A DNA stretch of 24,000 bases from Paraferrimonas haliotis. GTDB lineage: Bacteria; Pseudomonadota; Gammaproteobacteria; Enterobacterales; Shewanellaceae. The notes below the pieces were generated by a model, which was not told the DNA's origin, ran no database searches, and saw nothing but the letters and a program-made list of their open reading frames with translations. Below are positions 8,596 through 21,716 of this stretch, one piece after another; within the stretch, counting starts at the first letter, position 1; each line of letters begins with the position of its first letter. Location: the NCBI RefSeq assembly GCF_002282895.1, contig NZ_NRRB01000002.1:531676-555675 (forward strand). Direction: 5' to 3'. Both the position numbers and the translations under genes were made by a program.

Positions 8596-10119
8596 ATGAC
8601 TTACCTAGTCGCTACCTGTGTGTCCTTGTTGCTCGGCCCGTTGTTTTATCGATTTTTCGGGCAGCAAAATGGCATTACTAAAGCCATTGATGGTTTTGTA
8701 TTTGTCACGCTCGGTGGTTTATTACTGACCCACATTCTACCCGAGATGCTACACCACGGTGGCATCGCTGCTTTGGCGATGATATTGCTGGGTTTATTTG
8801 GCCCCACCGTGAGTGAACGCGCCTTTGCCAAACATTCTCAGCTTACCCATAACATCACCGTGTTATTGGCGTTCTTTGGCTTGCTGTTACACACGTTTAT
8901 CGATGGCACCAGCATTTCCATATCCACTCATGATGACGCCATTGGCGCTTATTTGCCCATTGGAATCATTTTACATCGATTGCCGGAAGGGCTCGCTATT
9001 TGGTGGTTACTGTCACCACAATTTGGTAATCGCTGGGCCAGTGTCGCCATTGCCGCCATGCTGACGGCAACCGTAGCAGGGTTTGGCGTCGGCGAGTTGT
9101 ACGCAAATCAATTGGCGTTCGACAACACGGTACTGTTGCAGGCATTCGTAACCGGCAGCATATTGCACGTCATTCTGCACCAACCGCACGTTGACAAAAA
9201 CCATCATCCGCAGCCAAGCCACGACACCATGGCGGGCATTGGCAGCTTGTTGGGCTTGGCTCTACTCTTTGTATTATTCACGACCCACTCTCACGGCGGC
9301 CATGAACACCTCGAACATTCGAGTGTTGAGCAGTTATGGCAATTGATGCTGACGTTGGCTCCCTATGTGGTGCTAACCTACATCATTGGTGCGGCTCGAT
9401 TTGGCTTGGGGATGCTGTCGACCCAATCCAGCGGTCCCGCAGCATGGATACAGCGATTGATGGGGCCTGAGGGCTTAATTTTGGTGGCGATTGTTTTAGG
9501 CTGGCAACTGGCCTCATTTCAGCTCGTTGCAATTGCGGTCATTGTTGCTTGGCTATCCCATCAAAGCGTGCCATTAGACAGTCGAACCGAAATAGAGCGC
9601 TTTTCTCTACGCCAATTCGCTTTGCAGTACCAAATCGAACGGTCAGCGCCTTGGGTGTTATTAAGTTTAGTGTTGGCCAACTTAATGACCTACCCTGACA
9701 TTCTCGCCGACAAACCTTGGTTGCAACTTCTGCTTATTGTGGCACTGCTGCTGCCGATGCGTTTTTGTTTTATTGGCGCCGCAGTCTTAAGCATTAGCCT
9801 GGCGCTAACCGGCTGGAGCAGTGCCGCGGTCATGCTTCCACTGCTCGCCGCACCACTATTAAACGTTAAACAACTGTCTAAGATGAGCGGCCCTCAAGGC
9901 GCCATTACCATGGCGTTGGTTTTAGCCTTGGTGGTCATTGGCAGCCAAAGTCTGCCAAGCTTCGAACAGCATGCTGCACCAATACCCTACCTATCGCCCA
10001 TTAGCTTGGTGATATTGGCTTTGTTATTCGCCAGCACCTTGTTGCGCATTGGACCGCGAGCCTTCATCGCGAACCTATTCGCCGTGAGCCTTGCTCACAA
10101 ACACCACCATCACCACTAA
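8596..10119 (+). CDS. Polytopic His-rich membrane protein; N-terminal half ZIP-family-like metal permease, C-terminal half uncharacterised
   Basis: ZIP-like motifs LHTFIDG (HxxxDG) and LHRLPEGLAIWW (HxxPEGLA). His-rich loops HQPHVDKNHHPQPSHD and HSHGGHEHLEH. The C-terminus is HKHHHHH. About 12 or more hydrophobic segments. Confidence 0.55.
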   Translation: MTYLVATCVSLLLGPLFYRFFGQQNGITKAIDGFVFVTLGGLLLTHILPEMLHHGGIAALAMILLGLFGPTVSERAFAKHSQLTHNITVLLAFFGLLLHTFIDGTSISISTHDDAIGAYLPIGIILHRLPEGLAIWWLLSPQFGNRWASVAIAAMLTATVAGFGVGELYANQLAFDNTVLLQAFVTGSILHVILHQPHVDKNHHPQPSHDTMAGIGSLLGLALLFVLFTTHSHGGHEHLEHSSVEQLWQLMLTLAPYVVLTYIIGAARFGLGMLSTQSSGPAAWIQRLMGPEGLILVAIVLGWQLASFQLVAIAVIVAWLSHQSVPLDSRTEIERFSLRQFALQYQIERSAPWVLLSLVLANLMTYPDILADKPWLQLLLIVALLLPMRFCFIGAAVLSISLALTGWSSAAVMLPLLAAPLLNVKQLSKMSGPQGAITMALVLALVVIGSQSLPSFEQHAAPIPYLSPISLVILALLFASTLLRIGPRAFIANLFAVSLAHKHHHHH

Positions 10120-13207: not shown

Positions 13208-14251
13208 CTAGTTAACCACCTGATGGAAAAGGTTTTGCACTAAGTACAAGCCTAAAATGCAGATCAGCATAGAGATAAACGGCGTCACAATCCAACCCAC
13301 CACAATGCGGCCAATATTACTCCAAGTAATGCTCAGTCGGCGGTATAAGCCGATACCGATAACAGCGCCAATAACCGCTTGCGAGCTGGATACCGGAACC
13401 AATGGAATGGCTGGCAAACCAAGGCTTGCGACGAAGTTTGATAAGGTTACCGAAGAGAACACAAACAAGGTAATTGAATGAGCCATCACCACAACCCAAG
13501 CGGTCACCGGCGTCATCGGAATCAAACTGGAGCCTACGGTCATCATGACTTTCTTAGAGTATGTAAATACACCCACGGCAATGGCGACACCACCTAAGAA
13601 AAACAATTGCATGGTTGAAGTTACTGAGAAGCCCATCGTCGAAAAGCTTTCAAACGGGCTTGAGCTTACAAATACCCCCATTACGTTGGCAATGTTGTTG
13701 GCGCCTAAGCTGTATGCACCAAAGGCACCGGCACCAATTAAGCCAATGCGGGTCCAGTTATCCAACTGAAACAAACCAGGGCGCGCTTTTTCCAATCCAA
13801 TGGTAACCGCTTTATACAGTCCAACCGCAATAAAAGCACTGAGAATGGGGCAAATAACCCAAGTACTGACAATTTTGGTTAATACGGATGAATCAGTGAC
13901 TAGGTTGCTGAAAAAGTTCCAGCCAATAATAGCACCTACAATCGCTTGACCTGTGGACACAGGAATGCCAGCGCGGGTCATCACAAACACGGTAACCGCA
14001 GCGGATAGTGCCACGGTAAATGCGCCACCAATAGCTGAAACGCTCCCTAAGGCTCCCAGCGTATGAGAAGCGCCGGCACCACTAATAACGGCACCTAAAA
14101 TTACGAAAATCGAACAGATGATAGCGGCGGTTTTAAAGCGCACCATTTTGGAGCCGACCGCCGAACCAAACACGTTAGCGGCGTCGTTGGCTCCGAGTGA
14201 CCAGCCTAAGAACAGGCCACTGGATAAAAATATGAGCGTTGCAATATCCAT
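13208..14251 (-). CDS. Inorganic phosphate transporter, short PiT (PHO4) family
   Basis: Duplicated GANDxxN signature (GANDAANVFGSAVG near the N-terminus, LGANNIANVMG in the second half). A 347-aa polytopic protein immediately downstream of a DUF47 gene, the classic pairing (B. subtilis ykaA-pit). Confidence 0.85.
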   Translation of the reverse strand: MDIATLIFLSSGLFLGWSLGANDAANVFGSAVGSKMVRFKTAAIICSIFVILGAVISGAGASHTLGALGSVSAIGGAFTVALSAAVTVFVMTRAGIPVSTGQAIVGAIIGWNFFSNLVTDSSVLTKIVSTWVICPILSAFIAVGLYKAVTIGLEKARPGLFQLDNWTRIGLIGAGAFGAYSLGANNIANVMGVFVSSSPFESFSTMGFSVTSTMQLFFLGGVAIAVGVFTYSKKVMMTVGSSLIPMTPVTAWVVVMAHSITLFVFSSVTLSNFVASLGLPAIPLVPVSSSQAVIGAVIGIGLYRRLSITWSNIGRIVVGWIVTPFISMLICILGLYLVQNLFHQVVN

Positions 14252-14265
14252 TAGTTCCCCTGCGC

Positions 14266-14934
14266 TTACTGAGCGCGTTTAAGAGTGAAAATTGACACTC
14301 GGTCACTAATGTCTTCGGCTAAATTGGCCACTTGCTCTATACGGTCACAAAAGTATCGCAGCTGCACCTTATTGGTGAGCGGTAAATCGGTGTTAAAAAT
14401 GGTGGTTTTCACGCGCTGACAAGCATCGTCGCAATCGCTTTCAAACTCCATTACCTTTAGGTGGTATTCGTGAACACGCTGAAAATCCGAGAAGAAACTG
14501 CGAGTGCACAGTAAGGTATGGTCGACGGTATCGCCAACAACTTGTACAAAACTCAGCAATTGCTCATGAGCTTCTTCTGGTATCACAGGCTTTTCTATAA
14601 GCAAATGATTACCAATGGTTTCTTGCTTATTAATAACGCGGTCGATGCTTTCCACAAGGCTGGCGACATCGGAACGCATGTCAGGGATTAGGGTCTTCTT
14701 GTACAGATCCATTTCAATCTGACGGCGAAGCTTGTCGGCTTTTTTTTCAATTCGTCTTAAGTGTTCAAGGGTATCAGCAAAACGTTCGCTGTCGGCGCCA
14801 CTTTGCAAGTAGATTTGCCACAGCTGAAAAAACTTGTGTTGAGACAGAGTAACTTGGTCAAAAAAGGAAAATAGTAACCGCTCGGTAGAGTGGCTCTTAG
14901 ATAATAGGTTGTTGATTTTGCTGAAAGAGAGCAT
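14266..14934 (-). CDS. DUF47 (PhoU-like, Pit accessory) protein
   Basis: An all-helical ~222-aa protein located 14 nt upstream of the PiT gene. The ATG at 14934 has a GGAG Shine-Dalgarno; the track start at 15006 adds an implausible N-terminal extension. Confidence 0.7.
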   Translation of the reverse strand: MLSFSKINNLLSKSHSTERLLFSFFDQVTLSQHKFFQLWQIYLQSGADSERFADTLEHLRRIEKKADKLRRQIEMDLYKKTLIPDMRSDVASLVESIDRVINKQETIGNHLLIEKPVIPEEAHEQLLSFVQVVGDTVDHTLLCTRSFFSDFQRVHEYHLKVMEFESDCDDACQRVKTTIFNTDLPLTNKVQLRYFCDRIEQVANLAEDISDRVSIFTLKRAQ

Positions 14935-15046
14935 GTTTTTCTCCGGGCATTTCTCCATGAAATGATGATTAGCGATGAATGGAAAGTGACTTGAAAGCAT
15001 GAGCAAAGAGAGTTTGGGAGAAAGCCCTCATTTGCTCATGCTCGTC

Positions 15047-15067
15047 AAAAAAGCCACCGAAGTGGCT
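15047..15067 (-). terminator. Rho-independent terminator after the 277-aa secreted-protein gene
   Basis: The minus strand reads AGCCAC-UUCG-GUGGCU followed by UUUUU, 9 nt after the TAA stop. Confidence 0.7.
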
Positions 15068-15075
15068 CAATTGAT

Positions 15076-15909
15076 TTACTTATTGAAGCCTTTGCTTAAC
15101 TTGAAAGTAGCGCCGGTTTTAGAGCCAGTGTGCATGCCTTCTAGTAGGCCGATGCGCTCAACTTCTTGCTCAATGTGAGCAGCTGCTTCTGCTAGTAACT
15201 TGCTGTTAGAAGCGTGGCCTTTGAAGTTAAACTCACCGAAGTAGATGCGAGGTTTGCGGTACAATGGAGTCCAGTAAGCAAACTCAACTTCTAGGCTGTC
15301 AAAGCGGCTGTCTTTAAGCTGACCTTCCCACTCAAGAGCACGCATCACTTCAGTTTGGATGATCTTGCCTTTGTTGGCTTCGTAGATGTCTTTCACCAAG
15401 TTGTAAGCGGCACGGTTGTGAGCACGGATGGTGGCGAATACTTTATCAACGTCAACGTTTTTCACGTCAATGTCAGCTGAAGAGTATGGGATGTCCCAAG
15501 ATACGCCGTAAGCGTTTTTACCGGCAGTGATGTCGATTTCTGCTTTACGGTAGTTGCTTACCGCACCGAAAGCTTCAGGGTTGGCACCACGTAGCTTAAC
15601 GGTAATTTTAGTTTTGGTTTGGTTAGCCACGTTCTCACGAACACGGATAATCAACTCTGCTTTGTCGAACGCCATATCAGGCGTATCCAAGTAAGTAACT
15701 AGCTTGTGACCTTGCTTACTGGTGTAGGTCATGAAGTCAAAAGTATTTTCAAACGCAGCAGTACGAGAGTTAGTTGCGTAAGGTAGGGTTTTACCAACAC
15801 CGGTGTTGATGTGGTGCTCAATGCGGTTAAAGTCGCTTTCGCTTAACGCTAATGCGCTTGAACTTAGGCACAAACCTACAACAGCGCTCATGAGTTTTGC
15901 TAATTTCAT
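15076..15909 (-). CDS. Secreted protein of unknown function; candidate extracytoplasmic TTM/CYTH-like beta-barrel
   Basis: Sec signal peptide MKLAKLMSAVVGLCLSSSALA|LSE. Alternating charged-residue strands (YLDTPDMAFDKAELIIRVRE, KITVKLRG, KAEIDIT, MRALEWEG, LEVEFAYW, FGEFNFKG) resemble CYTH tunnel strands. The fold call is pattern-based only. Confidence 0.45.
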   Translation of the reverse strand: MKLAKLMSAVVGLCLSSSALALSESDFNRIEHHINTGVGKTLPYATNSRTAAFENTFDFMTYTSKQGHKLVTYLDTPDMAFDKAELIIRVRENVANQTKTKITVKLRGANPEAFGAVSNYRKAEIDITAGKNAYGVSWDIPYSSADIDVKNVDVDKVFATIRAHNRAAYNLVKDIYEANKGKIIQTEVMRALEWEGQLKDSRFDSLEVEFAYWTPLYRKPRIYFGEFNFKGHASNSKLLAEAAAHIEQEVERIGLLEGMHTGSKTGATFKLSKGFNK

Positions 15910-15943
15910 TGATAGTCCTTAATTCTAATTATATGTAATCGAT

Positions 15944-15978
15944 TTGCCGGTACAGCGCGTTTTTCGCTGTACCGGCAA
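15944..15978 (-). other. Perfect 14-bp stem-loop between the porin gene and the secreted-protein gene
   Basis: TTGCCGGTACAGCG (15944-15957) pairs with CGCTGTACCGGCAA (15965-15978) around a 7-nt loop. No U-tract follows it on the minus strand, so it is possibly an mRNA stabiliser or partial terminator. Confidence 0.6.
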
Positions 15979-15984
15979 AAATGC

Positions 15985-17328
15985 TTAGAAGTAGTAAGCC
16001 ATACGGAACTGATAGCTGCTGGTATCGAACTTGTCAGCATTGATAGCCGTTTGTACGTCTTGGTACTTAGCTTCAGCATGAACGTAGTTGAATTGAGCTT
16101 TTAGGTTGTGCTCTAAGTACCAGTTCAAACCAACAACCATAGTGGTTTGCTCACCACCTTTGATGTCTTTCATTGGATCCGCATCAGCAGAGTTCAAATC
16201 GATGTAGCTGTAACGAGCCGCCACTTCGAATGCACCCCAACCACCTTGAGAAATCGGGTTGTCTGGGCTAACTGCACGGAAGCCACCGTTACGAGCACGG
16301 TAAGTCCAAGATTCGCCAGTGAAGGTGTATGCTGCTTGAACGTTGAAACCGCCAAGGTTTACAGAATCGCCGTCGATACGGTCGATCATAGAGCCAACGT
16401 ACTCACCCATTACTAACAAGTTGCGGTATTGGTATGCAGCTTCTACGCCGTAGTTAATTTCAGACTTAGAATCGAACTTACCTGTGTTAACCATACGCTC
16501 ACCCCATTTGTGATCTGGGCGCGCACGGTAACGGGACTCTTGATTGTCATCGTTAAAGTGGTTGTATAAGGCACTTGCACCTAAGTGAACCAACTGGCTG
16601 TTGCTTTGGTAAACAGGAGAGGTAATGCGGAAGTTTGCTACTGCACCTTCTACTTCACCACCGTCGATGAAGTCATCTGCAAGGATGCTCGCACCAGCAC
16701 GGAAGTTAACTTTACCTGGGGCGTAACGCCATTCGATACCCACGTTACGGTCTGGAGCAAACTGGTCAAGCGCTGAACGTTCTAGGAACATGTTGTGCGC
16801 CGAGCTGTTAGTGCTTTCTAGACCAAAGGCGTATTTTTGGAAACCGAAGGTGATGCGGTTGTTTGGAATGGCGCGGTAAGCTACCAACGCATCTTTTAGA
16901 TCAACTTCGTTTTCTGCGAAGTCCATTTGCAATTCGTATTCCCAAACTTGGGCAAACTTACCTTCAACGCCTAAACGCAAGCGACGTAAGTTAACAGTTT
17001 CGTATCCTTCTACAACGCTGCCATTATCAACGTCTTTAGAACCGTCGTACTTGAATTGGTCGTCGGTGCTGGTGATATCCATGTGGATACGACCTTTCAG
17101 TTGAGTGGTAGAGCGACCGTCGGCTGATACTAATTCACCAGAAGGAGTGCTTGGCTTAAAGCGAACGCGGTCAACGCGTTGAGAAGCACTTTGAGCGTCA
17201 ATCATTTCACGCTCAAGCATATCAATACGCTCTTCCAGTTCAGTGATGGATGTTTCTGCCATTGCTGGAGTCACAGCAAATAGAGAGGCCGAAACGGCTA
17301 ATGCGATAGTGCTAATGGTTGTTTTCAT
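15985..17328 (-). CDS. Phosphate-selective porin O/P family outer-membrane protein
   Basis: Signal peptide MKTTISTIALAVSASLFAVTPAMA and an N-terminal coiled-coil (ITELEERIDMLEREM). LKGRIHMD and RRLRLGVEGKF..WEYELQMDF..DLKDALVAY are typical of Porin_O_P. The C-terminus is ...FRMAYYF. The ATG at 17328 has a GGAGG Shine-Dalgarno. Confidence 0.8.
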   Translation of the reverse strand: MKTTISTIALAVSASLFAVTPAMAETSITELEERIDMLEREMIDAQSASQRVDRVRFKPSTPSGELVSADGRSTTQLKGRIHMDITSTDDQFKYDGSKDVDNGSVVEGYETVNLRRLRLGVEGKFAQVWEYELQMDFAENEVDLKDALVAYRAIPNNRITFGFQKYAFGLESTNSSAHNMFLERSALDQFAPDRNVGIEWRYAPGKVNFRAGASILADDFIDGGEVEGAVANFRITSPVYQSNSQLVHLGASALYNHFNDDNQESRYRARPDHKWGERMVNTGKFDSKSEINYGVEAAYQYRNLLVMGEYVGSMIDRIDGDSVNLGGFNVQAAYTFTGESWTYRARNGGFRAVSPDNPISQGGWGAFEVAARYSYIDLNSADADPMKDIKGGEQTTMVVGLNWYLEHNLKAQFNYVHAEAKYQDVQTAINADKFDTSSYQFRMAYYF

Positions 17329-17572
17329 GTTAATCCTCCAAAGAAAACTTTTTATTGGGGACTGCATGTTCGATGGTTTGAATCGAAGCTTTAGGCCCCT
17401 TTTTTGTTCGGAAGTAAGACTAACCCTAGTGTTAACAAATAAATGTGATCCAGCTAACAAGTTTCAACCACATCTGACAATTTACACCTCAAAAAAACAA
17501 AATGATGACCTAGATCAAACTAACTCAAACATACGTTTAAACACGCCTAAAGCATTGATTTAAATAGGTAAT

Positions 17573-17657: not shown

Positions 17658-18128
17658 TCACCAAGTGCTATAAGGTGCTTTCATTAACATTGAGTTATAG
17701 TATTTAGCATCACCGGTTACTTCTTCAGCTAACCAAGCTGGCTTAGCAACCGCTTGCTCTTCTGATTCTAACTCCACTTCGGCAACAATCAGTCCTTGGT
17801 TATCACCATAGAACTCATCAACCTCGAAGGTGTGACCTTCAAAGTCAACTAGGTAGCGAGTTTTATCAATAACGCCAGGTTCGCAGATTGCCAGCAATTC
17901 CTTCGCTTCCTCTACAGAGATTTGCTTTTCCCATTCGTAACGGCTCGCACCAGAAGCGCTTCCAATACCTTTAATGGTTAAAAAACCAGCCTCACCTTTA
18001 ATGCGAACACGAACCGTTCTTTCAGGTACGCTGCTTAGGTAGCCTTGAACGATACGCACGGACTTTTTTGAAATCGCAGAAAAGTCGGTAGGCTGAACTA
18101 AATACTTGCGTTCAATTTCTTGTGCCAT
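17658..18128 (-). CDS. CYTH-domain protein (triphosphate tunnel metalloenzyme, NeuTTM/CthTTM-like)
   Basis: Canonical N-terminal EIERKYLV (ExExK). Also VRVRIKG, LTIKG, RYEWEK, KTRYLV, FEVDEF, VAEVELESE and a C-terminal W. AGGAGA Shine-Dalgarno. Confidence 0.85.
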   Translation of the reverse strand: MAQEIERKYLVQPTDFSAISKKSVRIVQGYLSSVPERTVRVRIKGEAGFLTIKGIGSASGASRYEWEKQISVEEAKELLAICEPGVIDKTRYLVDFEGHTFEVDEFYGDNQGLIVAEVELESEEQAVAKPAWLAEEVTGDAKYYNSMLMKAPYSTW

Positions 18129-18138
18129 GGGTGTTCTC

Positions 18139-18777
18139 CTAGTTTGCCAGCTTTGCTGATTTCATGCCGATAACACGTTTGATTACTTGTAGGTAATTGA
18201 TGTTTTCAACACCTTCAAGTTTAACGTCTTTAATGGTTTTTTGAATGTCTTCCAGTTCGGTTGATTCGCTGTTAATAGAAACCACTTTTGCCCCATTTAT
18301 CAAGACGTTAGCAACTTCACAGATGGTGTTATTAACCATATAACCGAAACGTTCTTTATGAACGCTAACCGCTTGCAAGTCAGGGTGCGCGTCAATCAGT
18401 GCAATGAACTCATCGTAGCTGTAGCTGTCCTGGTTTAGCTCAGGCATATCGACCATGAATGCAGGGAATACTTCATCAACCAATTGTGCTTTTGAGATAG
18501 GGAATTCAGCTTTTAGTTTAGGATCCCACTGTTCGAGACCATCAACTGTCGTCACGTAGGTTTTAACGTCCATTTTACCGTCACGGATCTTGGTATTATT
18601 TAAATCGTTAGTACGAGACATGATGTAGATTTCATCACTTTGACGGTGCCAAACTTTCTCTGGAACGGGGGCTGACAGGCGAGCCATACGGGCAGCGGCT
18701 TCATCAAAGTTTTGACCGAAACTGCGGAACTCAAAGCGCGGCTTGGAAACTTCACCAATTTTTAACTCAGACATCAT
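18139..18777 (-). CDS. Hypothetical protein; possible degenerate CYTH/TTM-like paralog
   Basis: A 212-aa protein ending 10 nt upstream of the CYTH gene. Its strand pattern is RFEFRSF, EIYIMS, TKIRDGKMDVKTYV, HKERFGYMV, CEVANVLI, VVSINSES. This mirrors the CYTH strand order, but several acidic positions are replaced. AAGGA Shine-Dalgarno; the start could be 18777 or 18774. Confidence 0.35.
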   Translation of the reverse strand: MMSELKIGEVSKPRFEFRSFGQNFDEAAARMARLSAPVPEKVWHRQSDEIYIMSRTNDLNNTKIRDGKMDVKTYVTTVDGLEQWDPKLKAEFPISKAQLVDEVFPAFMVDMPELNQDSYSYDEFIALIDAHPDLQAVSVHKERFGYMVNNTICEVANVLINGAKVVSINSESTELEDIQKTIKDVKLEGVENINYLQVIKRVIGMKSAKLAN

Positions 18778-19099
18778 AAATCCTTAAAAAAATATTATCG
18801 TTGTGTTCAGTTGCCGCTCATCTTACGGATGCAATCATAAAAAAAAATGGATCTCGATCATGTTTTCGAGCTAAAAGTTTTTACCTAATCTTACATTCAC
18901 GCTCAATAGGCTCGTCAACTAATTGTTATAACGTTTTGATTTTTAATAGATTAGCAAATAAATTTGGTTGCGAAAAAATTTTCACGCCTACGATCACGTC
19001 AACGCTTGTCGCAATTAGGTTGATCTAGCTCCGGTTTTTTTTGTTGGCATACAGGTAAATTTGCCTCAGAAAAATGAAATAGCTCCTGGAAGTAACACA

Positions 19100-20686
19100 A
19101 TGACAACTAAGAATTACGACCCGCTCGATATGAGCCAACATCGGATGGAAACCCTCCCGATTCGACAAAAAAGCTCCTTCGAACAATGGTTGGCAAAATC
19201 TGGATTATGGATTGCCCTTGCGGTATTCATAGCAATAATGTGTACCGAAATCAGCTACTTAACTAACATCAATCCAGATGATTTAGGTAAGAATGCACTG
19301 GCCCACTTCAATGAAGTTGGCTCCGAGCTGTTTGCACGACACGGTGTGGCCATGCTCGCCATTTTCTGTGCGGCACTGGTGTTATGGGTATCGGAAGCCA
19401 TTCCTAATTATTTAACATCTTTGATCGTAATTATTGCAATGGTGTTAACGGGCGTGTTGCCAGAACGTACAGCATACGCTCAATTGGGCCATCCTATTAT
19501 GTGGCTTAACATCTTGTCCTTTGTGCTGGCATCCATGTTGGTTGCCTGCGGTGCAGCGAAGCGCTTCGCTCTTTGGTTCATTTGTCGTTTCGGTAAAAGT
19601 GCGACCCCGATTTTCTACAGCTTCATGTTAGTGAATATGGTGTTGTCAGCATTTATTTCAGCTACCACGGCCAAAGCCGCGATTTTAATGCCTATTTTTA
19701 TGGTTATTGCTGCCGTTTATGGTGCTCGAGGCGGTGACAATAAGAACAACTTTGGCCGTAACTTGGTTTTGCAGAACCTGCTGCAAATTAATCTCTGTGC
19801 CGGTGCTTTTGTTACCGGTTCTGGCGCAAACTTGTTAGCTGCCAGTTTAATCATTGGTGCCGGTGGTGCGTTATATTTCACCGATTGGATGGTGGTCGCC
19901 TTCCCAATTGTTGTGTGTATGATTGTTATCGGTTGGCTGCTTGGTACTCGAATTTTCTTCCCGCTCGCCAAAGAAGAGCGCTTGCCGCAAATTGAAGGTG
20001 GGATGGAGCGCTTGCAACAAGAGCTGGACAAGATGGGTAAGATTTCATTTAACGAAATCAAATCAATCGTTATCTTTGTGACCATTCTAGCCTTTTGGGC
20101 AACCGATAAATATCACGGCGTGAGCGCAACTGCGGTTGCCTTTATTGGCGCCATTGTCGCGTTATTTCCTCGTATTGGTGTGGTTAACTGGAACGACTTA
20201 GACATTCCTTGGCATCTACTGATTTTCTCAGCGGGCGCTTACACCCTAGGCGCTGGTTTCCGTCAAACTGATTTGCCGAGTTTATCGGTTAACGCGGGAG
20301 TCGAATACTTTGGGTTGAGCATGGATACACCGTTTTGGGTCTTTTACGTAGCCCTTACCGGAGCCATGATTTTCAGTTCATTGATATTCCAGTCGAAAAC
20401 CATGCGAACCATGCTGTTTATTCCTATCGCCATCGGCATTGCCGATCGCTTTGGCTTCTCCATGATGAGTTTAGCCCTGCCGGTCGCATTGCTTATTGAA
20501 CACGTTTACGTTTTACCGTTTAATAGTAAGCCTGCACTGCTGTGTTACTCCACCGACCACTACAGTTTGTCGGATACCTTCAAGTTCGGATTTACGATGT
20601 TGGTCATTGCGTGGTTTACCAGTATATTGTTTGGCGAAACATGGTTTAAGTGGCTTGGCTACGTACCGAACGGCGTATTCTACTAG
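19100..20686 (+). CDS. DASS/SLC13-family (ion transporter superfamily) anion permease
   Basis: A ~528-aa polytopic protein with two-fold repeat architecture. Hairpin-like segments FISATTAKAAILMPI and VLPFNSKPALL sit where DASS proteins carry SNT / TPPN motifs. I preferred the ATG at 19100 over the TTG at 19061. Confidence 0.65.
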   Translation: MTTKNYDPLDMSQHRMETLPIRQKSSFEQWLAKSGLWIALAVFIAIMCTEISYLTNINPDDLGKNALAHFNEVGSELFARHGVAMLAIFCAALVLWVSEAIPNYLTSLIVIIAMVLTGVLPERTAYAQLGHPIMWLNILSFVLASMLVACGAAKRFALWFICRFGKSATPIFYSFMLVNMVLSAFISATTAKAAILMPIFMVIAAVYGARGGDNKNNFGRNLVLQNLLQINLCAGAFVTGSGANLLAASLIIGAGGALYFTDWMVVAFPIVVCMIVIGWLLGTRIFFPLAKEERLPQIEGGMERLQQELDKMGKISFNEIKSIVIFVTILAFWATDKYHGVSATAVAFIGAIVALFPRIGVVNWNDLDIPWHLLIFSAGAYTLGAGFRQTDLPSLSVNAGVEYFGLSMDTPFWVFYVALTGAMIFSSLIFQSKTMRTMLFIPIAIGIADRFGFSMMSLALPVALLIEHVYVLPFNSKPALLCYSTDHYSLSDTFKFGFTMLVIAWFTSILFGETWFKWLGYVPNGVFY

Positions 20687-20699: not shown

Positions 20700-21716
20700 A
20701 TGAACTCTAAAAGAAATAAAGCGGACATTCGTAATAAATTGGCTCTTCTGCAATTAGCAGAAGAGCTCAATAGCATCAGTAAAGCCTGCGACATTATGGG
20801 CTACAGTCGCGATAGCTATTACCGATTCAAAAAGCAATACGAAGCGGCAGGTGAACTTGGGCTGCACAATTTATCCCGCACCAAACCGGCGATAAAAAAT
20901 CGCGTTGACCGTAAATTGGAAGAGCAGGTGATAGAAATTGCTCTGGATTACCCAGATTACGGCCAAGCCAAAGCCGCTGATGTACTAACCGCTCGCGGAA
21001 ACACCATTTCCCCGAGTGGCGTTCGTTCTATTTGGAAGCGCCACAACTTAGAGACTAAGAAACTGCGGCTATTTGCTCAGCAAGTTGCCGCAGCACAACA
21101 ACTGAGTCAGTCGAAATCTAGTGACGAGAGCGATATCTTTTTAAAAGACTCGCTGGAGTTAGGCTGTCGCTATCCCGGTGATATCTGCATTCAAGACACC
21201 TTTTCGTTGGGAAGTATCGACGGCTTAGGCGCTTTGTATCAGCACACCTTTCTCGACGGTTACAGTCAGTTTGCCGTTGCCACCATTTCTTTGTTTAAAG
21301 ACGCACCAACCGCTGCTTACTTTCTCTCGCACCAAGTGATTCATCAACTGAATCAGCAAGAGTTAACTATTAACCAACTGTTGACGGATAAAGGTAAGGA
21401 GTTTTTTGGCAGCGCAAGTCAATCCTTTCAATCGACTGTAGCGCATCTGAACATCAAGCACTTCCATAAACGTGCCTATAACGGCCCGGTTGTTAATGGT
21501 CTTGCGGCGCGTTTTCACAAACTCATGTGGGACGAATTTTACGAGCCGTCACTCAAATCGAAACGCTATCTTCACATTTCGGAGCTTGAGTCTGATATGC
21601 AAGCCTGGCTAGCCCGCTACAATCGACAATTTGCCATAGCCGGTCGTTACACACTGGGCAAAACCCCCTTGGAAACCATAGAGCTCACCCGTCACCTGCG
21701 CAACCATTTTCAATAA
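20700..21716 (+). CDS. IS481-like transposase/integrase-core homolog with an apparently incomplete DDE triad
   Basis: N-terminal HTH region (ISKACDIMGYSRDSYYRFKKQYEAAGELGL...YGQAKAADVL..RG..ISPSGVRSIWKRHNL). rve-like core with IQDTF (D1) and LLTDKGKEF (D2), but PVVNGLAARFH where the family has PQTNGxxERFH. The gene ends in a double stop, TAA TAG. Confidence 0.7.
   Translation: MNSKRNKADIRNKLALLQLAEELNSISKACDIMGYSRDSYYRFKKQYEAAGELGLHNLSRTKPAIKNRVDRKLEEQVIEIALDYPDYGQAKAADVLTARGNTISPSGVRSIWKRHNLETKKLRLFAQQVAAAQQLSQSKSSDESDIFLKDSLELGCRYPGDICIQDTFSLGSIDGLGALYQHTFLDGYSQFAVATISLFKDAPTAAYFLSHQVIHQLNQQELTINQLLTDKGKEFFGSASQSFQSTVAHLNIKHFHKRAYNGPVVNGLAARFHKLMWDEFYEPSLKSKRYLHISELESDMQAWLARYNRQFAIAGRYTLGKTPLETIELTRHLRNHFQ

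Follow-up and report, generated by a model that had tools for sequence, protein, structure and literature searches.

The 24,000-nucleotide window analyzed here, from Paraferrimonas haliotis (NCBI RefSeq assembly GCF_002282895.1, contig NZ_NRRB01000002.1, positions 531,676 to 555,675), encodes a 277-residue protein that is predicted to be exported and to adopt the fold of the triphosphate tunnel metalloenzymes (TTM/CYTH fold). The gene occupies positions 15076..15909 on the minus strand (ATG start, stop codon included), and the open reading frame (ORF) was found at exactly the coordinates given in an initial annotation made from the sequence alone. A database search returned a P. haliotis hypothetical protein 100% identical to its product. 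Computation shows the protein to be a highly divergent member of the TTM/CYTH fold, as judged from its predicted structure, and its N terminus points to a periplasmic location. We propose that it is a periplasmic hydrolase of condensed inorganic phosphate that feeds a PiT-family phosphate transporter encoded nearby, a proposal to which we give slightly less than an even chance. The features new to description are the exported family, its export, its degenerate active site, and the genomic module that surrounds it.

Predicted fold

An AlphaFold2 (AF2) model of the protein was built on 31 orthologues and had a mean predicted local distance difference test (pLDDT) score of 92.1 and a predicted TM-score of 0.87. 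All of the top 46 Foldseek matches in the Protein Data Bank (PDB) were TTM/CYTH structures, with probabilities of 0.91-1.00, E-values down to 2.5e-6, and target-normalized TM-scores up to 0.67. The matched structures include HpAC1, BH2851, GBAA_1210, AtTTM3, SaTTM, PH1819, CyaB, YgiF, Vtc4, and the human and mouse thiamine triphosphatases (ThTPases). The pLDDT of 92 and the Foldseek result together support, at the level of the predicted fold, an eight-stranded antiparallel β-barrel tunnel. The initial annotation had described a CYTH-like strand pattern, and all five strand segments that it listed are β-strands in the AF2 model (residues 101-108, 122-128, 189-198, 207-215, and 224-232).

Sequence profiles gave a weak yet specific CYTH signal. 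CYTH was the only recurring Pfam family and was matched by 16 of 39 diverse members with a best E-value of 2.2e-5; the distant member P0081 reached the gathering score of 23.2 bits. In the P. haliotis protein, Pfam CYTH aligns to residues 72-118 only, the stretch YLDTPD...IIRVRE whose resemblance to a CYTH segment had been pointed out at the outset. A family profile from the wider alignment (A2) reached just two proteins among the PDB sequences, and both are TTMs (2GFG and 6YP4). These weak matches were aligned across YxDT..LRVR..ITvKsR..yEiD, opposite LRIR...LKSR of HpAC1 and BH2851. The profile of the orthologue alignment (A1) returned just a chance match to a small heat shock protein from the same sequences, and an NCBIfam search with the 277-residue protein gave nothing informative.

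Export signal

The N terminus, MKLAKLMSAVVGLCLSSSALA|LS, is built like a Sec signal peptide, with n-, h-, and c-regions in that order. This signal, read from the sequence, covers residues 1-21 (15847..15909, minus strand). Lys2 and Lys5 give the n-region its positive charge, a hydrophobic core follows, and A-L-A occupies positions -3 to -1, giving the predicted cleavage site ALA|LS. There is no lipobox because Leu precedes Cys14. These are the features of a type I signal peptide, and the Sec signal, AxA site, and missing lipobox reported initially are thereby corroborated. A21 and L22 are invariant among the 31 orthologues, and residues 1-20 have low pLDDT in the AF2 model.

The signal is a property of the family. 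Using a maximum 10-residue hydropathy of at least 1.8 within the first 30-40 residues as the criterion, a signal-like hydrophobic N terminus was detected in 82 of 92 family proteins, which is every member with a complete N terminus. The remaining 10 are either fragments lacking the N terminus or gene calls that start inside the domain. Lipoboxes were found in P0060, P0069, P0079, and P0082, and P0049 ends with a PEP-CTERM sorting signal. The N-terminal signal is kept down to 16% identity, and this comparison across the family strongly supports an extracytoplasmic location for all of its members. Prediction therefore favors export over a cytoplasmic location, which would have contradicted the suggestion of an exported tunnel protein, and we infer that the 277-residue protein is periplasmic.

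Conserved tunnel residues

Conservation in the mature tunnel domain (residues 22-277; 15079..15846, minus strand) was counted over 48 non-redundant family members with <60% mutual identity. Those best conserved carry charged or polar side chains and follow an i, i+2 spacing along the predicted strands. The basic set consists of R89 (47 of 48), R91 (45), K105 (48), R107 (46), K122 (39), and K264 (47), and the acidic set of E31 (42), D75 (44), E124 (47), D126 (47), E207 (35), and E226 (38). T103 is present in 47 members, and position 73 is Tyr in 40 and Phe in 6. A C-terminal S263-K264-T265 motif occurs in 45-47 members, and further conserved positions are S135, S137, D139, D/E209, W213, and S228.

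Several of these residues correspond to known elements of the TTM active site. The basic patch of TTM enzymes, RxR on β3 with its invariant catalytic Arg followed by Lys on β4, is present in the exported family and aligns to RVR...TIK of NeuTTM-like proteins. In a motif-level alignment, Y73 and K105, within YLDTP and TVK, take the places of the catalytic dyad Tyr28-Lys52 proposed for NeuTTM. The HFxxxxExExK signature of the cyclases is absent, with no HF ahead of β1. The WxRxR signature of the ThTPases is also absent, and position 87, two residues before R89, is mostly Ile (34 of 48).

The ExExK motif, which in CYTH/TTM enzymes lies on β1 and serves metal site 2 and contact with the phosphate, is degenerate. 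β1 reads R29-I-E31-H-H33 (RIEHHINT, residues 29-36), which reduces ExExK to xxExH. The register was taken from relatives with AEVKFLV or AEYKFQL at this strand and pairs E31 with the second Glu of the motif and H33 with its Lys. The view that ExExK is not canonical was thus correct, but its placement at FENTFDF (residues 53-59) was not; the AF2 model puts FENTFDF in a helix and the start of β2, and RIEHH is the segment that corresponds. In CYTH/TTM enzymes, the late-strand ExE supplies an invariant site-1 Glu and a site-2 Glu (PMC4641920). Going by the order of strands, the barrel ends in a strand with E226-x-N228 (E-x-S in the family), and the strand before it carries E207-x-E/D209. In the two-metal scheme (PMC4641920), the Glu that binds the substrate metal at site 1 appears to be kept in most members, with E226 as its probable equivalent. 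Catalytic metal site 2 seems to keep one of its three carboxylates and to be largely missing.

Distribution of the exported family

The family is rare. Searches returned 40 matches among 5.8 billion clusters, 56 cluster representatives among 1.84 billion proteins, and, with orthologue alignment A1, 27 loci in 185,579 species genomes. The carriers include marine Shewanella, Ferrimonas, Colwellia, and Oleispira, a sulfur-oxidizing endosymbiont, Desulfospira, and Desulfuromusa. One orthologue, from Ferrimonas aestuarii, has been named automatically as a "CYTH domain-containing protein", and annotation pipelines have therefore already glimpsed the fold.

Two signal-bearing proteins of 310-350 residues (locus L038, 8345-9277, and locus L033, 11146-12213) are weak relatives with E-values of about 1e-5. 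They have a more canonical E-x-K on β1 (AEYKFQL, REMKFLI) and a C-terminal GSK[TA], and they look like a sister family of exported TTM-like proteins. The exported clade would thus be broader than the 56 clusters. Desulfospira has a second such paralogue. A conserved domain of ~190 residues is fused to some family members, N-terminally in P0047, P0048, and P0052 and C-terminally in P0085 and P0090. Its motif is ..PAYIKYYE..NPYLQVG..DKDGNF..SPWG..YGH..GG..GEL..NNKSGRY. Searches for relatives of this domain in Pfam and the PDB found none, and the only match, to XopV/AopV type III effectors, was below threshold. One uncultured gammaproteobacterial genome (CANNCY010000005.1; loci L015 and L020) has two copies of the family gene ~15 kb apart, one directly after a porin gene and the other after porin-PhoU_div-PiT.

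Gene neighborhood and synteny

All genes between 13208 and 18777 lie on the minus strand in the order unk212, CYTH, porin, hairpin, the exported-protein gene with its terminator, PhoU_div, and PiT. The gene directly upstream (15985..17328) encodes a phosphate- or pyrophosphate-selective porin of the OprO/OprP family (Pfam Porin_O_P, 3e-51) that is homologous to Pseudomonas aeruginosa OprP (2o4v, 4e-13) and OprO (4rjw, 2e-10). The initial statement that the tunnel protein is encoded right behind a phosphate porin therefore holds. The mechanically called porin ORF (15985-17460, minus strand) begins at a TTG that lies 44 codons ahead of the probable start codon, the ATG of MKTTISTIAL... (MKTTISTIALAVSASLFAVTPAMA) at 17328. 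At the N terminus of the mature porin, a predicted acidic stretch of coiled-coil-like character, ETSITELEERIDMLEREMIDAQ, precedes the barrel.

Two genes on the same strand follow the exported-protein gene, a PhoU_div (DUF47, TIGR00153) Pit-accessory protein (14266..14934; PF01865, 3e-24) and a PiT (PHO4) inorganic phosphate transporter (13208..14251; Pfam PHO4, 1.6e-52). On the other side of the porin gene lies a canonical cytoplasmic CYTH protein, CYTH156 (17658..18128, minus strand; Pfam CYTH, 2.5e-15), whose ExExK reads EIERK. CYTH156 is a homologue of the specific tripolyphosphatase NeuTTM (2fbl/3typ, about 1e-17), and its gene is followed by its own terminator. The adjacent gene, unk212 (18139..18777, minus strand), encodes 212 residues with a predicted TTM fold. 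A Na+-coupled anion symporter of the DASS family (19061..20686, plus strand; Pfam Na_sulph_symp, 4e-51; TIGR00785, 4e-57) is transcribed divergently.

This arrangement is conserved. In 23 of the 27 genome loci, the family gene is immediately preceded by a porin gene on its strand, and where the flank is complete the gap is 13-35 bp, so the two genes are probably co-transcribed. In most loci PhoU_div is directly downstream of the family gene and is adjacent to PiT, and the PiT copies beside family members, including distant ones, are 58-74% identical. Nearly every locus with enough flanking sequence has CYTH156, unk212, and DASS homologues within 10 kb. The gene order is unk-CYTH-DASS-porin-family for P0037 of the sulfur-oxidizing endosymbiont (37% identical); DASS, PhoU_div, PiT, unk, CYTH, family for P0028 (39% identical); and CYTH, unk, DASS, PhoU_div, PiT, family for P0051 (26% identical). 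P0064 (22% identical) is placed between PhoU_div and PiT, and P0046 (25% identical) adjoins Ppx-GppA, TctCBA, and an unk212 homologue. Because remote members keep these associations, the neighbors retained most persistently are PiT together with PhoU_div, and the two cytoplasmic TTM-fold proteins.

The module is flanked by mobile elements. In the window, the DASS gene is directly followed by the gene for a transposase (20700-21716, plus strand) that has HTH and rve integrase domains, and an ISL3 transposase splits the DASS gene at the P0028 locus (L004, 538-1713). Elsewhere in the window, a 507-residue ORF without a Pfam match (8596-10119, plus strand) adjoins a TANGO2-family gene. This ORF was considered as a counterpart of the 445-residue membrane protein of the Shewanella and Crenobacter modules and was rejected as unrelated on comparison.

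Transcript signals and codon usage

A Shine-Dalgarno sequence, AAGGA (15916..15920, minus strand), was read 6 nt ahead of the ATG of the exported-protein gene. An intrinsic terminator (15045..15068, minus strand) lies 8 nt past the stop codon and consists of a 7-bp GC-rich stem with a UUCG loop, GAGCCAC-UUCG-GUGGCUU, followed by a U6 tract. It folds with an energy of -15.3 kcal/mol (z -2.5), and its stem was also picked up by a consensus scan. Judged by the effective number of codons (ENC), this gene (38.0) and the porin gene (37.9) have the two lowest values, and so the strongest codon bias, among the 22 genes of the window; the remaining genes range from 42 to 59. These data agree with earlier remarks that the gene has its own strong terminator and the codon choice of a well-expressed gene.

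A perfect 15-bp hairpin (15944..15978, minus strand) separates the porin stop codon from the exported-protein gene and has no U tract on the sense strand. Its folding energy of -29 kcal/mol (z -5.7) was matched by 0 of 200 shuffles. The hairpin may be an intercistronic processing, stabilizing, or attenuating element that fixes how much porin is made relative to tunnel protein. The 13-35 bp between the porin and family genes in Shewanella leave too little space for a 15-bp hairpin.

A cross-phylum module and three predicted TTM-fold proteins

unk212 had no match in Pfam or NCBIfam. Its >3,300 homologues come from Gammaproteobacteria, Betaproteobacteria, Bacteroidota, and Rhodothermales and share about 75% identity across these groups, and all top Foldseek matches of its AF2 model (pLDDT 89) are TTM structures. 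unk212 is thus predicted to represent an unannotated and extremely conserved TTM-fold family, and the locus would encode three TTM-fold proteins. The unk212 gene directly adjoins the NeuTTM-like CYTH gene in every examined locus that holds both. When the profiles of the exported and unk212 families were compared with each other, no significant similarity emerged (probability 1.3%), and a PADLOC search for defense systems gave no matches for the three TTM-fold proteins.

The module with unk212-CYTH156, DASS, and PhoU_div-PiT is also present in other phyla. In Cloacibacterium rupense (L037, 2408-11952), it has a Porin_O_P porin, and two other exported proteins, an LTD protein and a phytase-like one, occupy the accessory slots. 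In Crenobacter caeni (L038, 1373-10401), the porin is a general one of the Porin_1/Porin_4 type, and the CYTH gene is followed by the gene for a 310-residue signal-bearing protein related more distantly (E about 1e-5) to the exported family. Both modules also carry a membrane protein of 445-487 residues. The ~75% identity of the core genes between phyla suggests horizontal spread.

Proposed function and alternatives

In the proposed pathway, condensed inorganic phosphate (pyrophosphate (PPi), tripolyphosphate (PPPi), or short polyphosphate) would enter the periplasm through the OprO/P-type porin, whose gene is probably co-transcribed. Once there, it would be captured by the exported tunnel protein, probably as a metal complex, through the basic residues R89, R91, K105, R107, K122, and K264 and the acidic residues E31, E124, D126, E207, E/D209, and E226. 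The protein would most likely cleave the condensed phosphate to orthophosphate (Pi), and PiT with its PhoU_div partner would import the released Pi. Since metal site 2 is largely missing, the chemistry would proceed through the Tyr73-Lys105 dyad and/or a single metal, compare AtTTM2. Computation has shown the gene with its signal peptide, the TTM fold, conserved residues of the tunnel type, and the synteny; the periplasmic location, the ligand, and above all catalysis are deduced.

Several results weigh against a periplasmic hydrolase with a TTM fold. Pfam CYTH (PF01928) scored the P. haliotis protein below its gathering threshold (13.4 versus 23.2 bits, E 0.071). The hhalign comparison with NeuTTM-like sequences, in which the CYTH alignment was shallow (Neff 2.2), gave a meaningless alignment in global mode and only the β3-β4 hairpin (IIRVRE...KITVK, E 0.011) in local mode. 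ExExK is the hallmark of CYTH enzymes (PMC8233210), and one Glu of it remains: E31 alone is conserved, position 29 is variable, and position 33 is His, Ala, or Gly. Mutating either Glu of ExExK strongly lowers the tripolyphosphatase (PPPase) activity of AtTTM3, and a change of Glu-6 impairs YgiF (PMC4641920). The position of the second Glu in the late ExE is Ser or Asn by strand order. Position 226 (Glu, Asp, or Ser, with Ser in one orthologue clade) varies among orthologues, as does position 33, and this variability is unexpected for catalytic residues. The mapping of residues to canonical sites itself relies on strand order and motif matching. A Pho box of the E. coli type, CTGTCATNNNNCTGTCAT, had one chance-level match in the window with up to 3 mismatches, inside a coding region, and no positionally conserved match across 38 related loci.

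The main alternative, which we consider possible though rather unlikely, is a non-catalytic periplasmic binder or hand-over protein whose tunnel concentrates, buffers, or delivers metal-phosphate, PPi, or PPPi to PiT or DASS. Imported PPPi would then be hydrolyzed by the cytoplasmic NeuTTM-like CYTH protein. The DASS carrier and the cytoplasmic PPPase homologue in the module leave room for this alternative; the two are co-located in nearly all loci with sufficient flank, which is sensible if intact condensed phosphate is imported, and the position of P0064 between PhoU_div and PiT is in keeping with hand-over. No use of periplasmic binding proteins is known for PiT and DASS carriers, and this counts against it. 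At the level of residues, a binder accounts for the loss of most of metal site 2, of the first Glu and the Lys of ExExK, and of the ExE that became ExS/N, as well as for the variation at positions 33 and 226. The best-conserved residues are basic and of the kind assigned mainly to substrate binding in TTMs (PMC4641920). However, 5-6 acidic tunnel residues are also strongly conserved, a number beyond what would be expected of a protein that only binds anions; the Tyr-Lys dyad is kept, and TTMs without ExExK can still hydrolyze PPi (PMC8233210). A periplasmic hydrolase remains our preferred reading.

Hydrolysis of an organic triphosphate in the periplasm, such as extracellular ATP, other nucleoside triphosphates (NTPs), thiamine triphosphate (ThTP), or another nucleotide, is improbable. 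TTM enzymes act on NTPs, RNA 5' triphosphate, and ThTP besides PPPi, and CyaB, ThTPase, and plant enzymes that carry an adenylate cyclase annotation are among the structural matches. However, the exported family has neither the HF motif of class IV cyclases nor the W-x-R-x-R of ThTPases (PMC8233210), OprO/P-type porins form narrow channels selective for the anions phosphate or pyrophosphate, and all neighboring genes suggest inorganic phosphate. We see an equally slim chance that the TTM fold is re-used outside phosphate chemistry, for example as a structural or regulatory subunit associated with the porin. TTM-like barrels without triphosphate chemistry (Mediator Med18/20 and RESC) do appear lower in the Foldseek list, and Cloacibacterium has its non-homologous LTD protein at the same position behind the porin. 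Against such re-use, the top-conserved residues are the charged, alternating tunnel positions of TTM enzymes (RxR, TxKxR, KxExD), and distant members retain the PiT or Ppx context even without the porin. That the hydrophobic N-terminal segment stays uncleaved and leaves the protein cytoplasmic or anchored in the inner membrane is very hard to reconcile with the n-h-c architecture with AxA, the invariant A21-L22, a signal in all N-terminally complete relatives to 16% identity, the lipobox and PEP-CTERM variants, and a probably co-operonic outer-membrane porin.

The searchable literature yielded no report of an exported or periplasmic CYTH/TTM protein, and the characterized CYTH/TTM proteins named in the literature examined are intracellular. 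If true, an exported branch would carry this ancient fold for handling phosphate into the cell envelope. Dissolved polyphosphate can support the growth of marine bacteria and algae, by access and transport mechanisms that were called unknown in 2026 (PMC13318637). The family gene lies between a pyrophosphate/phosphate-type porin and PiT in the carriers named above and is therefore a concrete, testable candidate for that step. More broadly, and only tentatively, a periplasmic TTM branch could be the missing extracytoplasmic step in the use of dissolved pyro-, tri-, or polyphosphate, running from porin to tunnel protein to PiT within a horizontally spread three-TTM module; we think this wider scheme doubtful. 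The DASS symporter of the module may import intact condensed phosphate. The source of the natural substrate of specific tripolyphosphatases has been unclear since NeuTTM and YgiF were characterized (PMC3440374), and the unk212-CYTH-DASS-PhoU_div-PiT module may supply a physiological role for them. Its cytoplasmic pair of TTM-fold proteins, unk212 and CYTH, is about 75% identical across phyla in a widespread module.

Comparison with known systems

The predicted TTM β-barrel is shared with NeuTTM (NE1496 of Nitrosomonas europaea, 2FBL/3TYP), YgiF, and CthTTM. NeuTTM is a specific PPPase with a proposed Y28-K52 catalytic dyad (PMC3440374). Motif matching pairs Y73-L-D-T-P with Y28-L-T-T-P, R89-x-R91 with R39-x-R41, T103-x-K105 with T50-x-K52, K122-x-E124-x-D126 (KAEID) with R59-x-E61-x-E63 (RQEYE), and EVE/D with ELD. 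Unlike the cytoplasmic NeuTTM type, the present protein is predicted to be exported and is ~100 residues larger, with extra helices and a hairpin in the model. ExExK has become xxExH, no basic residue corresponds to K85, ExS/N replaces the late ExE, the C-terminal S-K-T motif is family-specific, and sequence similarity is below the Pfam threshold.

The two-metal tripolyphosphatases AtTTM3, HpAC1, and YgiF provide the best structural matches (6yp4, E 2.5e-6, TM-score 0.67; 5a68). They share the RxR arginines and the probable site-1 Glu (E226, 38 of 48). Of the AtTTM3 acidic patch that forms metal site 2 (E2, E4, and E171), the exported family appears to keep one carboxylate of three. AtTTM1 and AtTTM2 (sequence similarity network cluster 7) lack ExExK and ExE, and AtTTM2 is a pyrophosphatase in vitro (PMC8233210). 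They set a precedent for chemistry without the hallmark motifs, as would be needed in the exported family. In contrast to AtTTM1/2, the exported protein is bacterial and soluble, and its position 87 is mostly Ile.

The tunnel domain of Vtc4p also has the TTM fold, with the acidic patch absent or reduced and the site-1 Glu retained (PMC4641920). Vtc4 swaps the acidic patch for basic residues and polymerizes phosphate from ATP at the cytoplasmic face of the vacuole, whereas the periplasm has no ATP supply. The PhoA, PhoX, and PafA-type phosphatases have an unrelated fold, and the exported protein is partnered by PiT and PhoU_div rather than PstSCAB, with no Pho box detected. Together with the Pseudomonas OprO/OprP porins, these phosphatases nevertheless follow the same logic as that proposed here, in which an anion-selective porin, a periplasmic phosphohydrolase, and a Pi transporter of the inner membrane act in sequence.

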